Shown: in pieces, positions 32,409-38,447 of the stretch
How positions within the stretch are numbered: the stretch's first letter is position 1
Layout of the letters: the number at the start of each line of letters is the position of its first letter
Origin: Escherichia coli
GTDB lineage: Bacteria > Pseudomonadota > Gammaproteobacteria > Enterobacterales > Enterobacteriaceae
Assembly (NCBI RefSeq): GCF_029227855.1
Contig: NZ_CP074356.1
Strand: one strand, 5' to 3'
DNA: 64,000 nt
Translations under genes and position numbers: made by a program
Notes under the pieces: generated by a model
Seen by the model: the letters and a program-made list of their open reading frames with translations, nothing else
Databases searched by the model: none
What the model was told of the DNA's origin: nothing

Positions 32409-33220
32409 CCGAATCAGTAGCCCGTTTGCGTGGCGAACAGTTAACCCTCGGATATGGCAAATATACCGTTGCGGAAAATCTGACTGTAGAAATTCCTGAT
32501 GGTCACTTCACGGCAATTATCGGGCCAAATGGCTGCGGTAAATCCACGTTACTGCGTACTTTAAGCCGCCTGATGACGCCTGCTCACGGGCATGTCTGGC
32601 TGGATGGTGAGCACATTCAACATTACGCCAGTAAAGAGGTTGCACGCCGGATTGGCCTGTTGGCGCAAAATGCTACCACGCCGGGCGATATCACCGTGCA
32701 GGAGCTGGTGGCGCGTGGACGTTACCCGCATCAACCGCTGTTTACCCGCTGGCGCAAAGAGGATGAAGAAGCGGTAACGAAAGCGATGCAGGCCACGGGA
32801 ATCACTCATCTGGCAGATCAAAGCGTGGATACCCTTTCTGGCGGACAACGCCAGCGAGCGTGGATAGCAATGGTGCTGGCCCAGGAAACGGCAATTATGC
32901 TGCTCGATGAACCAACGACCTGGCTGGATATCAGTCATCAGATTGATTTGCTGGAACTGTTAAGCGAACTGAACCGCGAGAAAGGCTATACCCTGGCGGC
33001 GGTGCTGCACGATCTTAATCAGGCCTGTCGTTACGCCAGCCATTTGATTGCATTGCGGGAAGGGAAAATTGTTGCTCAGGGAGCGCCGAAAGAGATTGTC
33101 ACTGCTGAATTGATCGAGCGCATTTATGGTCTGCGCTGCATGATAATTGACGATCCGGTTGCCGGAACGCCGCTCGTGGTGCCGCTCGGACGAACGGCAC
33201 CTTCAACCGCAAATAGTTAA
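32405..33220 (+). CDS. fepC: Ferric-enterobactin ABC transporter ATPase FepC, 271 aa
   Basis: ORF 32264..33220; start taken at ATG 32405 (MTESVARLRGEQLTLGYGKY...); Walker A GPNGCGKST and LSGGQRQR signature; ATGA overlap with fepG. Confidence 0.92.
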   Translation: MTESVARLRGEQLTLGYGKYTVAENLTVEIPDGHFTAIIGPNGCGKSTLLRTLSRLMTPAHGHVWLDGEHIQHYASKEVARRIGLLAQNATTPGDITVQELVARGRYPHQPLFTRWRKEDEEAVTKAMQATGITHLADQSVDTLSGGQRQRAWIAMVLAQETAIMLLDEPTTWLDISHQIDLLELLSELNREKGYTLAAVLHDLNQACRYASHLIALREGKIVAQGAPKEIVTAELIERIYGLRCMIIDDPVAGTPLVVPLGRTAPSTANS

Positions 33221-34350
33221 ACTAAGTGCTCTTCCATCACGGCATCCTGTTTTCTGGATGCCATCGCATGGCGCAACAGCACGCCACCACAAGCCACCAT
33301 CCCGCCGATCATCGCAGAAAGGATCACAATAATCGCCTTACCCGGACCGTCTTTTTTCACTGGCAATGACGGGCTTAACTGATATTTAAACGGCGTAAAA
33401 TTCACATCGTTGATATTTGCTTTTGTTAACTGCTCAACAAGATACTGACGATTACGTAATTCACCGTTCAGTTCCGCAACGTCAGTAACCGCTTTTTCAA
33501 TTTCCAGTTTGCGTTCAATACCGTCTGCGCCGAGAGAAATAGAGAAATCGGGGTCATCTTTAACGGCCTGACCATTACTGTAAACGGGCTTTTTAATTCC
33601 TGCCGCGTTAGCAATGTCGAGTGAATAATTGAGGCGCTGAATGTTTGCATCAAGTTGATTTTTCGTTTTAATGCGGTCCTGAGCCAGTTTTTCTTTTTCA
33701 AACTGGGTTTTGATCTCCAGTTTATTACGGACGTTTTCTATCGACTCTTTCACCACCAACGCAGAGATATAATCGATATACCCTCTCAAAACGGTCTGCG
33801 CCTCTTCACTGGTTGGCGCGGTAAAACTTAGCGTCCAGGAGTTATACAGTGACGGTTCATCTTTTTTCTTACTGGCATTGTCATCAACCGCTTTCATTTT
33901 TTCGCTCAATGCGACAATTGCGCGATGCAAATCCAGTTCGTCGATTTTCGCCTCTTTTAATTGGTCCATCACATAAGGTGTTGAGCGCAGGTACTCTTCC
34001 AGCAAGCTAACCGACTGAAACTTCTTGATAAACAGGTTAAATGCTTCTGTACGATCAATTTTGATATCCAGATCCAGCACACGAAGCTTAGTGAATGTTT
34101 TCTCAAGCGCCTGCCACTGAACAGGTTCTGGAGGCGTGACAACCGCCACGCTGGTCCATTTTTGCGGCAGGATGAAAGAGATCAGTAAACCTGCGCAGGC
34201 AAATGCAAAAATGACCGCCATGACCGTTTTTTTGGCCCGCCATAAAACTGCGATTAGATTAAGTAAATCAATTTCATTATTACTGGGCGACGCCAGAGGA
34301 TACTCGGGAAAATGAGCGTCACTTCCCTGTTTAATATTCAGTGATGACAT
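33217..34350 (-). CDS. fepE: FepE, Wzz-family polysaccharide co-polymerase (O-antigen chain-length regulator), 377 aa
   Basis: ORF track 33217..34350, MSSLNIKQGSDAHFPEYPLASPSNNEIDLLNLIAVLWRAKK...; two-TM Wzz architecture. Confidence 0.9.
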   Translation of the reverse strand: MSSLNIKQGSDAHFPEYPLASPSNNEIDLLNLIAVLWRAKKTVMAVIFAFACAGLLISFILPQKWTSVAVVTPPEPVQWQALEKTFTKLRVLDLDIKIDRTEAFNLFIKKFQSVSLLEEYLRSTPYVMDQLKEAKIDELDLHRAIVALSEKMKAVDDNASKKKDEPSLYNSWTLSFTAPTSEEAQTVLRGYIDYISALVVKESIENVRNKLEIKTQFEKEKLAQDRIKTKNQLDANIQRLNYSLDIANAAGIKKPVYSNGQAVKDDPDFSISLGADGIERKLEIEKAVTDVAELNGELRNRQYLVEQLTKANINDVNFTPFKYQLSPSLPVKKDGPGKAIIVILSAMIGGMVACGGVLLRHAMASRKQDAVMEEHLV

Positions 34351-34565
34351 GGGGTATAACCTGAAAATGAGTCCAATAGGGGGAAATCTCCACGGCGCTC
34401 ACTTTACCAGTTGGTGAGAATTATCCGAAGCTGAAGTTTGTAAATTCCTTCCACTGAATGCAACATTCACTCTATTTAAGAGAAATATCCACCAAATCCA
34501 TAAATTAAATAAATGATAAACCCATAATTATTTCCTGTAATTATGGGTTTATCGATAATATTAAT

Positions 34566-37500
34566 TTACCTGTTTAGCGTAGCGCGAATAATCGGCCCAA
34601 TTTTTTCAAACGCCCCTGGAGAGATAATATCCACATGCGCACAATCCTGACGATAGATATCCAGCTCCGCAATCCACGGCGACCAGGCGCGTTCGGGATT
34701 CATACCTTCCTGAAGCGTGCGTTCAGCAACAAACAGCGTCGCTTTACCGTCAAACGGTACACTATGAGCAGTCGTCAGCAGGCGCACAGCATCAGCGTAG
34801 TTGCCTTCAATGGTGGTAAACAACTCCGTTGAAGTACTTCCCTGCTGTGCCGCCAGGAAGGCCTCGCGCTCGCGGTTAATCTCCGCCAGCACTTCCGGGT
34901 CCAGGCCATTAGCCTCTTTTTCCTGCCAGTTTTGCGTTTCTGGCGGCCAGGTATCCAGCAAGCCAAAAAATGCCACCTGTTCGCCACGGGCACGCAGCCG
35001 CGCCGCAATACCCTGCGCCAGCGTACCGCCCAGCGAATAACCCAGCAGGTAATAAGGGCCGTGCGGTTGATGCTCAAGTAACGTTGCCAGATGCGCTTCG
35101 CAGACTTCATCCAGATTTGCCGCGGTCTGCATGGGGCCATTGGGGCGCGGCGACTGAATGCCGATAATCGACCATTGTGGATCGAGATAACGCGAGAGCA
35201 CGCTGAACTGCCAGGCAAAACCGGACGCAGGATGGAAACAAAACAGCGTCGGGCCATTACCTTCACGCAACGGCAGAATGGTTTCGAATCCCATGCGCCG
35301 GGAGCTGTCTTCTTCACCATCAATAATCGTTGCCAGTTTGGCGACAGTTGACGCGACCATCACCTGCCCCGGCGTCACCTGGCGGGTAAACTGCCGACTT
35401 AACTGCGCAGCCAGTTTCATTGCCAGTAGCGAATGACCGCCAAGCGCGAAGAAATCAGCATCGGCATCCTGCACGTCACAACCCAGCAACGACGAGAATG
35501 CCGCGGCGATAATCGTTTCACTGCCCGCTTTCGGCGCACGCCCCGGCGCTTGTGCCTTCAGTTCAGGCAACGGTAAGGCTTTGCGATCCAGCTTGCCGTT
35601 GGCGCTAAGCGGCAACTGCGGAAGTTGCAGCAGAACCACGGGCACCATATGCGGTGGCAATGTTTCGCGCAACTGCGCCTGCAATGCAGTGGTATCCAAC
35701 GGCAGGCCTGATTGCGACACCAGATACCCAACCAACTGACGCGCATCGCCTCCCGTTGCGGCAGCCTGGTTAATAACGCAGGCGTGGGTCACGGCCTGTT
35801 CAACGTCCGGCAGCGCCTGCATCACGCGGTCGATTTCGCCCAGTTCGATACGCTGCCCGCGAATTTTTAGCTGATCGTCACTGCGCCCGAGGTACTCCAC
35901 CGCGCCGTTATCCAGCCAGCGGGCAACGTCTCCGGTACGGTACATCCGTTCACCTGGGGCAAAAGGATCGGCAATAAAGCGGCTGGCGGTCAGATCGGGG
36001 CGTCCGAGATAGCCCTGCGCCAGTTGTATGCCAGTGAGATAGAGATCACCCGCCACACCTGGCGGCACCGGATGCATCATCGCATCAAGAATACGCAGGC
36101 CCGTATTCCACACCGGATAACCAATCGGCACACTACTGCCGCGCACCTGTGCCAGTTCCTCGCCAAAAGCCGGATACCAGCTGACATCTACCGCCGCTTC
36201 CGTCGGGCCATATAGATTATGCAACGGCACGCTGGTTAACTGTTGCCATTCGCGGCATAAATCAGCGGGTAAGGCCTCACCACTACAGAAAACCTGTTTC
36301 AACGTCGCGCAATTCTGGCGAGCGGTTTGCGGCGTCAGCGATGCAACAAATGCCGCCAGCATCGACGGCACAAAGTGCGTAGTCGTTACGCCATATTCGG
36401 CAAAGAATTGCTGCATAGCGAGCGGGTCGCGGTGCGCTTCCGGTTCAGCCATCACCAGTTTAGCCCCGGCAATAAACGGCCAGAAAAACTCCCACACCGA
36501 GACATCAAAACTGCACGGCGTTTTTTGGGCAACGACATCTTCGCCTGTAAGCGGGTAGTGGTTTTGCATCCAAAGCAGGCGGTTAACGATAGCCGTCTGC
36601 CCGACCATTACCCCTTTCGGCCTGCCGGTGGAGCCAGAGGTAAAGATGATATAAGCCGTGTGGTGCGGTTGTGAAAGTTTCAGCGGCGCACTGCCCTGCG
36701 GTGTAAGCGGGGCGTTATAGCAAAGGCTGGTTAAATCTGGAACATCGGCAAAGCGCGGCAGTTGATCGTCGGTGGTGATTAACAGCGACGGACGCGCATC
36801 TTCCAGCATCATTTTCAGGCGATCGTCCGGATAGCCGGTATCCAGCGGTAACCAGGCCGCACCAGCCTCAACAATTGCATGTAGCGCCAGAGTCAAAAAG
36901 ACCGAGCGCGGTAGCGCCACCGCCACGCTGTCGCCTGGTTTAACGCCGCGCTCACGCAGCAGATTCGCCAGCGCCACCACCTGCTCGCGCATTTCCCGAT
37001 AGCTAAACTGGTAACTCGCATCAACCAGCGCCGGAGCATGCGGTGTTTTTGCCGCTTGTTCTGCCACCAGCGCGCTCAGCGTGGTTTCTGGAATCTCAAC
37101 CTGAGTGGCGTTGATCTGCGCCAGCTGCACATATTCACCTGGCAGCATAATATCGACATCGCCGCACAACAGCGCCGGATCCGCGGCGAACTGGGCAATC
37201 AGCATTTTCAGGCGTTCAGCATGCTGGATTAACGTTGGCTCATCGTAACGCTGTTTATTGGCGAGGATCTCAATACTCAAATCACCGTGTTCATCCGGGA
37301 ACAGGGCCAGTTCAAGGTCATTAACCGGACCGGTTGCCAGGGTATGGGTTTGCGTCTGAACACCAGGAATATCCAGTTGGTAATCAAATACCTTGATATT
37401 GAGTACCGGACCGAACAGCGGTTCCTCTCCTGCCGCTCGCCCGCTGTCACGGACAATTTGTTCGGCATCGTAACGTTGATAACGACGCATTTTTTTCAGT

Positions 37501-38447
37501 TGTGCTGCCAGTCGGGTTGCCAGTTCCGGCAGCGTTTCTTGTGCCGCAATGTGAATCCCCAACGGCAAAACGTTGAGCACGGGTCCGGTAGCCGTCAGCG
37601 CCGCCGAGCCCAGTCGACGCATAAAGATAAATCCGGCGGCGTAGTCCATGCGATTGCACAATCGCCCCAGCCACAAGGCTGCCAACGCAAGTGCTAAATC
37701 GGTACGCTGCACACCTGAAAGTTGCGTAGCCAGCTGGCGGAATTCCCCGTCGGTAAACTCCAGTTTCAGGCGCAGAATATCTGCCGAGACGCTGCGCCCC
37801 GGTAAAGGTGCCGGAGAAAGTGACGCGGGCGGCGGCAGTTGACGACGCTGTTCCGTCCAGAATGCCGCATCACGCTGCCAGGCTTCGCTTTCGCGGTATT
37901 GCTGGTACTCTTCCACGACATCAGCGAAAGGCGTAAACGGCGAAGCAGGCGTTGGTTCGCCACGCAGCCATGCGCAGTAAATATTGGCGATCTGGCGGGT
38001 AATGGCCGGGAAACTGAAGCCATCGACCAGCAAATGGTGATAACGCTGATACCAGTACCAGCGGTTATCTGCCACCTGAATGAGCTGATGAAAGACCAGC
38101 GGTTTGCCGCTGTCGGCACGTAGATTTTGCTGTAAATCCGCCTGCATTAATGCCCGCGCAGTACCGTGCGGATCAATGTTGGTTCGCAGGTCGATAATTT
38201 CTGGCAGTTCGAACGTCAGCGCATCATCGACCCACTGCCAGACTTCGCCGTTATCTTCCGTAAAACGCATCCGCAGCGTATCTGCTTGCGCTATTCCGGC
38301 AACCACCGCGCGGGCCAGTAGTGGCGCATCAACCTCTCCGGTTAACTCAACGTAATGCGCCACGCTCCAGGCGGAGGGTAAATCCGACAGTTTTTCTGCC
38401 ATCCAGATGCCGGGCTGTGCGGCGACCAAAGGTAAATGCTGGCTCAT
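34566..38447 (-). CDS. entF: Enterobactin synthase component F (NRPS: C-A-PCP-TE), 1293 aa
   Basis: ORF track 34566..38447, MSQHLPLVAAQPGIWMAEKLSD...; adenylation motifs (FTSGSTGRPKGV), PCP (GGHSLLA), thioesterase GYSLGG. Confidence 0.96.
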   Translation of the reverse strand: MSQHLPLVAAQPGIWMAEKLSDLPSAWSVAHYVELTGEVDAPLLARAVVAGIAQADTLRMRFTEDNGEVWQWVDDALTFELPEIIDLRTNIDPHGTARALMQADLQQNLRADSGKPLVFHQLIQVADNRWYWYQRYHHLLVDGFSFPAITRQIANIYCAWLRGEPTPASPFTPFADVVEEYQQYRESEAWQRDAAFWTEQRRQLPPPASLSPAPLPGRSVSADILRLKLEFTDGEFRQLATQLSGVQRTDLALALAALWLGRLCNRMDYAAGFIFMRRLGSAALTATGPVLNVLPLGIHIAAQETLPELATRLAAQLKKMRRYQRYDAEQIVRDSGRAAGEEPLFGPVLNIKVFDYQLDIPGVQTQTHTLATGPVNDLELALFPDEHGDLSIEILANKQRYDEPTLIQHAERLKMLIAQFAADPALLCGDVDIMLPGEYVQLAQINATQVEIPETTLSALVAEQAAKTPHAPALVDASYQFSYREMREQVVALANLLRERGVKPGDSVAVALPRSVFLTLALHAIVEAGAAWLPLDTGYPDDRLKMMLEDARPSLLITTDDQLPRFADVPDLTSLCYNAPLTPQGSAPLKLSQPHHTAYIIFTSGSTGRPKGVMVGQTAIVNRLLWMQNHYPLTGEDVVAQKTPCSFDVSVWEFFWPFIAGAKLVMAEPEAHRDPLAMQQFFAEYGVTTTHFVPSMLAAFVASLTPQTARQNCATLKQVFCSGEALPADLCREWQQLTSVPLHNLYGPTEAAVDVSWYPAFGEELAQVRGSSVPIGYPVWNTGLRILDAMMHPVPPGVAGDLYLTGIQLAQGYLGRPDLTASRFIADPFAPGERMYRTGDVARWLDNGAVEYLGRSDDQLKIRGQRIELGEIDRVMQALPDVEQAVTHACVINQAAATGGDARQLVGYLVSQSGLPLDTTALQAQLRETLPPHMVPVVLLQLPQLPLSANGKLDRKALPLPELKAQAPGRAPKAGSETIIAAAFSSLLGCDVQDADADFFALGGHSLLAMKLAAQLSRQFTRQVTPGQVMVASTVAKLATIIDGEEDSSRRMGFETILPLREGNGPTLFCFHPASGFAWQFSVLSRYLDPQWSIIGIQSPRPNGPMQTAANLDEVCEAHLATLLEHQPHGPYYLLGYSLGGTLAQGIAARLRARGEQVAFFGLLDTWPPETQNWQEKEANGLDPEVLAEINREREAFLAAQQGSTSTELFTTIEGNYADAVRLLTTAHSVPFDGKATLFVAERTLQEGMNPERAWSPWIAELDIYRQDCAHVDIISPGAFEKIGPIIRATLNR

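Follow-up and report, generated by a model that had tools for sequence, protein, structure and literature searches.

The perfect palindrome between entF and fepE in Escherichia coli is very likely an intrinsic, leaky terminator that ends the iron-regulated fes–ybdZ–entF transcript before the separately promoted fepE gene. An earlier note on this DNA had offered two readings of the repeat, an entF terminator or attenuator separating entF from fepE and a protein-binding palindrome controlling fepE. The terminator is favoured by a hairpin with a U-rich tail on the entF-sense strand, by compensatory and strand-specific G·U changes across three genera, by a separate fepE promoter downstream and by published expression data in which fepE is uncoupled from, or weakly coupled to, its upstream genes. 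From this anatomy, covariation, strand specificity, fepE start site and uncoupling, we infer termination at the site and its efficiency; termination is probably incomplete.

In the proposed mechanism, the nascent RNA would fold into a 13–16-bp hairpin once the RNA polymerase has moved past the entF stop codon. The U-rich stretch would then provide a weak RNA:DNA hybrid, so that most transcripts would be released within about positions 34500–34514, and the 3´-terminal hairpin would also protect the entF mRNA from 3´ exonucleases. The transcript ended in this way would be the Fur-regulated fes–ybdZ–entF message, with fepE incompletely insulated from it: most fepE transcription would start at the gene's own promoter, some 120 nt downstream, and read-through would bring it only a damped iron signal.

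The element is ordinary in kind and implies no new mechanism. Its main value lies in annotation, as fes–ybdZ–entF–fepE is treated in papers as one Fur-regulated operon. A conserved terminator combined with a separate promoter would explain why fepE often does not follow the iron response but H-NS, SdiA and host signals. A literature search on an entF–fepE terminator returned nothing relevant; none of the papers searched appears to describe the site, and it carries no annotation in RefSeq.

Position and Genomic Setting of the Palindrome

The sequence analysed (the window) is a 64-kb stretch of E. coli DNA, and its relevant features are collected in Table 1. The repeat had been described as AAACCCATAATTA-TTTCCTG-TAATTATGGGTTT at 34518–34550, which matches the sequence exactly. 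Its description as a perfect 13-bp inverted repeat holds as to perfection but falls short as to length: the perfect arms comprise 16 nt, at 34515–34530 (GATAAACCCATAATTA) and 34538–34553 (TAATTATGGGTTTATC), with 7 nt between them. The distances given for it, 16 bp to the entF stop and about 170 bp to the fepE start, are essentially right. The gap to the entF stop codon (34566–34568) measures 15 nt for the 13-bp form and 12 nt for the 16-bp form, and 167 nt separate the repeat from the fepE ATG (34350).

Table 1. Features of the entF–fepE region (window coordinates).
Feature	Position	Strand	Details
Probable terminator hairpin	34515..34553	-	5´ arm 34553-34538 GAUAAACCCAUAAUUA; loop 34537-34531 CAGGAAA; 3´ arm 34530-34515 UAAUUAUGGGUUUAUC
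U-rich tail AUUUAUUUAAUUUAU	34500..34514	-	Directly 3´ of the stem, read from the sequence; expected region of transcript 3´ ends (NC_000913.3 about 618,087-618,100)
entF CDS	34566-38447	-	ORF list; NCBIfam EntF equivalog 2798 bits (cut-off 2400); RefSeq annotation of identical/similar loci
fepE / wzz(fepE) CDS	33217-34350	-	ORF list; NCBIfam Wzz(fepE) equivalog 621 bits (cut-off 300); same RefSeq annotation in near-identical E. coli records; GC 0.42-0.46
fepE promoter	34393..34429	-	-35-like TTCGGA 34429-34424; extended -10 TGgTAAAGT (TGGTAAAGT) 34409-34401; start site corresponds to 34393
H-NS footprint counterpart TTTGGTGGATATT	34484..34496	-	2-mismatch match to TTTGCTGGTTATT; adjoins the hairpin without overlap
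Promoter-like TCGTCA-18-TATTAT	34617-34653	-	In the last 90 bp of entF; Cappable-seq start U00096.2 617210 = NC_000913.3 617987 = window 34617

The AT-rich setting reported for the repeat is real, with a GC content of 0.37 over 34300–34599 versus 0.55–0.61 in entF. The same low value characterises the spacer as a whole (0.37), fepE is intermediate (0.42–0.46), and fepC resembles entF (0.55–0.61). Judged by this composition, the low-GC fepE segment was apparently inserted between entF and fepC. At its other end, fepE and fepC are convergent and their stop codons overlap by 4 bp (33217–33220), leaving no space for a terminator between them; in Salmonella, the fepE–fepC gap is 53 nt.

Anatomy of the Hairpin

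The stem lies on the same (minus) strand as entF, 12 nt past its stop codon, and is the only terminator-like site found on that strand by a consensus terminator scan of 33000–35000. The folding energy calculation suggested for the repeat bears out a stable structure: the entF-sense RNA folds at −19.7 kcal/mol (z = −7.9 versus shuffles) with 16 perfect pairs, and the K-12 allele forms 13 pairs at −13.4 kcal/mol (61-nt context). The stem is not G+C-rich, since only 4 of the 16 pairs are G–C, with a CCC/GGG core and A–U pairs in the remainder. A U-rich tract, AUUUAUUUAA, follows directly after the 16-bp stem and is interrupted in the window allele. The complementary hairpin is possible in plus-strand RNA, but it is then followed by CGAUAAUAUUAAUUUACC, and no transcription is expected towards it on that strand.

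Two alleles of the U tract occur, UUUUUUAUUU and UUUAUCAUUU, and the window carries the broken UUUAUCAUUU. In K-12, the 13-bp stem is followed by UUUUUUAUUUGUUU, with a clean U6; in the window allele, the tract reads UUUAUCAUUUAUUU and is interrupted because the stem has been extended into it (lower stem GAU/AUC). With the d'Aubenton-Carafa score, re-implemented with modern energy parameters so that its values are approximate, the window scores −22.8, against +13.6 for K-12, +12.5 for C. koseri, +10.9 for E. albertii and +10.4 for Salmonella. As the window stem has been extended at the expense of the U tract, its allele may be a weaker terminator than that of K-12. The difference between the clean U6 of K-12 and the interrupted tract of the window suggests that alleles may differ in how much iron-regulated read-through reaches fepE. 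The doubt raised about the efficiency of such an AT-rich stem was therefore justified, with only three to four G–C pairs in the stem and an interrupted U tract in the window.

Two promoter-like hexamer pairs overlap the hairpin (TCGATA-17-AATAAT and ATTACA-17-TATCAT). They were set aside because they are specific to the window allele, K-12 having TTTTAT in place of TATCAT; in MG1655, no Cappable-seq start site lies between U00096.2 617210 and 617434.

The element resembles canonical Rho-independent terminators of enterobacteria in combining a stem-loop with a U-rich run, a few nucleotides past the stop codon and on the coding strand. It differs from them in its unusually AT-rich composition (3–4 G–C in 13–16 pairs) and its long stem, and the window allele differs also in its broken U tract.

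Conservation, Covariation and Strand Specificity

Relatives of the locus were collected by a one-genome-per-species scan with the EntF C-terminus, which gave cryptic Escherichia lineages, E. albertii, about 14 Citrobacter species, Tenebrionibacter and Tatumella; Salmonella loci were reached via FepE homologues. A homologous hairpin is present in every entF–fepE locus examined (Escherichia spp., E. albertii, Salmonella and about 14 Citrobacter species), which answers the conservation check that had been proposed for the palindrome. It is recognisable at these loci (core CCAUAAU...AUUAUGG) and is followed by a U-rich run, while most of the other spacer sequence has diverged.

Covariation was measured on a gap-free structural alignment (A2) of 22 distinct sequences with a 16-pair helix. 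Standard pairs occupy 90.3% of the cells, versus 37–53% when the partners are slid by 1–3 columns. Changes on both sides of a pair are found in 37 cells, compared with a mean of 14.3 in shuffled alignments, and none of 500 shuffles reaches 37. The covariation score is 0.388, versus 0.185 in shuffled and at most 0.119 in slid alignments. RNAalifold independently recovered a core of 11 pairs, five of them with double changes.

The two strands are not equivalent. The entF-sense strand has 42 G·U cells, the antisense strand 4; the Salmonella hairpin, for example, has two G·U pairs (AAACCCAUAGUAAU / AUUAUUGUGGGUUU). As these cells fall mostly on the sense strand, pairing is greater there than on the antisense strand, both in the whole helix (90.3% versus 79.5%) and in the core (97.1% versus 86.4%). 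The 12 nt past the core stem contain a mean of 8.8 T on the sense strand versus 4.9 on the antisense strand (23 loci). The double-changed cells and the G·U imbalance indicate that the structure of the RNA strand, and not its sequence, is under selection.

The covariance model derived from A2 matches only at entF–fepE junctions, with no other match in the window, and it also recognises loci outside A2 (L053, L054, L055, L058 and a decayed copy in L020). Its scores range from 44 to 65 bits on the sense strand and from 19 to 37 bits on the antisense strand; the window hairpin scores 64.8 bits on the minus strand versus 36.7 bits on the plus strand. Covariation and strand bias are what would be expected of an RNA hairpin acting on entF-derived transcripts, and not of a symmetrical protein site. 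In its compensatory conservation and its predicted one-directional action, the element would again resemble canonical Rho-independent terminators.

Loci without fepE also have hairpins past entF. The convergent entF and fepC genes of Citrobacter sedlakii and two Tatumella species lie about 55–70 nt apart, with an unrelated GC-rich hairpin between them, and Tenebrionibacter, which has no fepE at this place, carries GC-rich hairpins after entF. The position right after the entF stop is thus occupied by a hairpin at loci with and without fepE, the AT-rich version co-occurring with the low-GC fepE segment. By analogy of position, immediately past the entF stop, the GC-rich entF–fepC hairpin of C. 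sedlakii and Tatumella presumably does the same job as the entF–fepE hairpin. It differs in its unrelated, GC-rich sequence and in being common to two convergent genes, whereas the entF–fepE hairpin shares the AT-richness of the inserted fepE segment and carries its U tail on a single side.

A Separate Promoter for fepE

Within the spacer, the block TTTCGGATAATTCT-N8-CTGnTAnAnT is conserved best across Escherichia, Salmonella and Citrobacter; it is an extended −10 promoter located about 120 nt downstream of the hairpin. Gene coordinates were checked in U00096.3, and start sites were converted with an offset from U00096.2 to U00096.3 at entF–fepE that we take to be 777 nt. Cappable-seq of MG1655 placed a start site at U00096.2 617434(+) (PMC4782308). 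It corresponds to a G at NC_000913.3 618211, 7 nt past TAAAGT and 43 nt before the fepE ATG, and the hairpin lies 122–160 nt upstream of it.

Homologues of fepE at non-ent loci (56–57% identity; between cupin and racemase genes) keep a version of the promoter block and lack the hairpin. The hairpin therefore belongs to the entF junction and not to the fepE regulatory module. Among the contexts of distant FepE homologues, P0124 and P0125 were informative, the contigs of P0122 and P0127 being too short. Upstream of one non-ent FepE homologue (L061 1330–1370), an unrelated perfect 11-bp palindrome, AGATTGACTTT-ATTTG-AAAGTCAATCT, is located about 60 nt before the promoter block.

Expression of fepE and Read-Through

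The genes fes–ybdZ–entF–fepE have been named as one operon in published papers (including PMC4145685, PMC6049941 and PMC8910356). Serum exposure of ExPEC induced fes, ybdZ and entF along with the Fur regulon but not fepE, which instead belonged to a separate set of genes whose rise depended on complement (PMC4145685). Mild pressure raised entF, fes and ybdZ of K-12 13.7-, 5.8- and 3.5-fold, respectively, and fepE is absent from the listed genes (PMC6049941). In the comparison of microaerobic with aerobic K-12, the log2 changes were −5.04 for fes, −4.96 for ybdZ, −3.10 for entF and −1.69 for fepE (PMC8910356), and this damped co-regulation implies that some read-through reaches fepE. Taken together, the three data sets fit a leaky terminator and an independent fepE promoter.

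Partial terminators that damp a distal gene are exemplified by the attenuator between rplL and rpoB and by the terminator before dnaG in rpsU–dnaG–rpoD. The entF hairpin is similarly located between genes of one listed operon, and the distal gene fepE has its own promoter and is more weakly co-regulated (log2 −1.69 versus −3.10).

No entry for entF or fepE is found in the Term-seq supplements of Adams 2021 (searched by gene name and coordinate) and TERMITe 2025. Such an absence says little, because standard media keep the ent genes repressed.

It is unlikely that the hairpin is a regulated attenuator, terminating conditionally under the control of, for example, an RNA-binding protein, an sRNA or ribosomes that stop 12 nt before it. 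In that case, it would gate the passage of iron-regulated transcription, or of transcription from a promoter in the 3´ end of entF, into fepE. The damped co-regulation of fepE with entF agrees with such gating, but a terminator with constitutive leakage explains it equally well. The closeness of the stop codon to the stem, 12–15 nt in Escherichia, also speaks for an attenuator; this distance is not conserved, however, reaching about 26–40 nt in Citrobacter and Salmonella. The Cappable-seq start inside the 3´ end of entF (window 34617) would put the hairpin in a leader, but no competing antiterminator fold appeared in the 76–113-nt contexts folded, and there is no leader peptide or known riboswitch, with nothing from Rfam. 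Nothing found supports regulation of this kind.

An RNA starting at window 34617 would either end at the hairpin after about 107 nt or run on into fepE as a distal transcript whose leader contains the hairpin. It is quite improbable that, beyond terminating the entF transcript, the hairpin also ends an sRNA of about 105–110 nt, made from a sigma-70-type promoter in the last 90 bp of entF, or that it conditionally gates O-antigen chain-length control (fepE) by iron status. If true, the 105–110-nt RNA would be a previously undescribed 3´-end-derived regulatory RNA of the enterobactin locus.

There is very little likelihood that the hairpin acts without true termination, by stabilising or defining processed 3´ ends, or that it serves as the terminator of a separate sRNA of about 107 nt. 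The start site U00096.2 617210 is placed 7 nt past a TATTAT −10 element, with TCGTCA as −35, but it is weak and one among the 16,539 called in the Cappable-seq set. Its hexamers fall in coding sequence, where common codons explain their conservation, so that conservation of the entF-internal promoter is not separable from codon preference. The long U tail of K-12 is typical of Hfq- or ProQ-bound RNAs, yet a literature search linking entF to Hfq or RIL-seq retrieved no papers, and a conserved hairpin followed at once by a U tract is itself the mark of termination.

Regulators of fepE and the Protein-Binding Reading

A Fur site in the spacer was considered and ruled out: the best match to the Fur box GATAATGATAATCATTATC in the spacer is 11/19, versus 15–16/19 at the entS–fepD and fepB–entC promoters of the same window. 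Published promoter-reporter fusions showed that H-NS represses fepE in EHEC and that SdiA does so in E. coli (PMC8669466, PMC11619404). The H-NS DNase I footprint at the EHEC fepE promoter corresponds to TTTGCTGGTTATT (PMC8669466), and this exact motif lies 22–34 nt 3´ of the hairpin in an O145 strain.

The other option of the earlier note, that a dimeric regulator controls fepE by binding the palindrome, be it H-NS, SdiA or another repressor, has scant probability. Perfect dyad symmetry in AT-rich DNA upstream of a gene reportedly repressed by H-NS and SdiA would suit an operator, but the variation keeps pairing and not sequence, and the 42 G·U cells break the symmetry of the DNA. The half-sites are not kept symmetrically between the two strands, the palindrome is 122–160 nt upstream of the fepE start, and the fepE homologues elsewhere keep the promoter block without it. 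The reported H-NS footprint is beside the palindrome, not on it. The left arm of the window allele contains TCGATAAA, which may resemble a reported H-NS nucleation motif; however, this motif is not conserved, K-12 having TTTATAAA. Strand asymmetry, distance and absence from other fepE loci thus all disfavour a protein-binding site.

A second perfect palindrome, TGAATG-TTG-CATTCA, occurs at window 34455–34469 (minus strand), 62–76 nt upstream of the fepE start site. Common Escherichia alleles conserve it, whereas Salmonella, Citrobacter and the Nissle-type allele described below do not. It is a candidate operator, and SdiA represses fepE in E. coli and not in Salmonella.

Rarity of the Repeat and Neighbouring Insertions

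The palindrome is the sole perfect hairpin-type repeat with arms of at least 13 nt (loop 3–10) in the window. A mean of 0.015 such repeats was obtained in 200 first-order Markov simulations, none with arms of at least 16 nt, and, allowing up to three mismatches, the palindrome pattern has a single match in the window and none in 100 shuffles. Across 4,889 E. coli genomes, the hairpin region is found at a median of one place per genome. No true plasmid copies of it were identified: the 'plasmid' matches are records of 0.1–4.9 Mb, mostly clearly mislabelled chromosomal sequence. An Rfam scan of 33000–35500 at permissive thresholds gave only three chance-level matches, none at the hairpin.

A repetitive or mobile element (REP/BIME, ERIC or MITE) is ruled out, as the element is single-copy in the window and per genome. 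It shares with REP/BIME and ERIC sequences the location of an intergenic palindrome right after a gene, but differs from them in its one copy per genome and in lacking similarity to the ERIC-like insert of Citrobacter sp. MGH106. In that strain (L020 4201–4548), the ERIC-like element, with its own strong hairpin, immediately follows the entF stop, and the original hairpin beyond it has decayed (GGAG to TAAT), scoring 27.7 bits versus 44–65 bits elsewhere.

That the palindrome arose by chance, or is a functionless relic of the fepE insertion event, is almost certainly wrong and already effectively refuted by the covariation data: the hairpin does sit at the boundary of a low-GC segment and IS1 insertions recur beside it, but chance alone would give the window only about 0.015 such repeats and the hairpin has been kept with compensatory changes across three genera.

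IS1 directly adjoins the hairpin through two independent events. In strain G3/10 (L005 1841–2490), IS1 is found in place of the spacer and the 5´ part of fepE; in OkiPb01679 (L054 1–60), IS1 ends at the CCC of the left arm and the AAA stem base is lost.

Alleles of the Junction in E. coli

The entF–fepE junction is present in 5,409 of 5,426 complete E. coli genomes, and about 4,880 genomes carry the common spacer and fepE allele. The exact window hairpin allele was found in only two genomes in each E. coli search, and just two of the 5,426 complete genomes (JNEC-KY178 and ETEC1738) reach at least 99% identity over 34300–34620. The C-terminus of the window EntF is 97% identical to that of 'Escherichia sp.' MOD1-EC7003, versus 92% to the GTDB E. 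coli representative. These rare alleles, together with the closer relation of EntF to MOD1-EC7003, point to an unusual lineage or a recombinant segment.

A second, deeply divergent spacer allele of 246 nt (L004 2552–2797, L051, L008) occurs in 517 genomes, Nissle 1917 and 516 others, its copies being at least 99% identical to one another. Its FepE is only about 84% identical to that of the window, and this divergence suggests that the fepE segment may have been replaced through recombination. The hairpin is found at the same place in the Nissle-type spacer, by way of two compensatory changes: AAACCC/GGGTTT has become AAAACC/GGTTTT and, nearer the loop, a T:A pair has become C:G.
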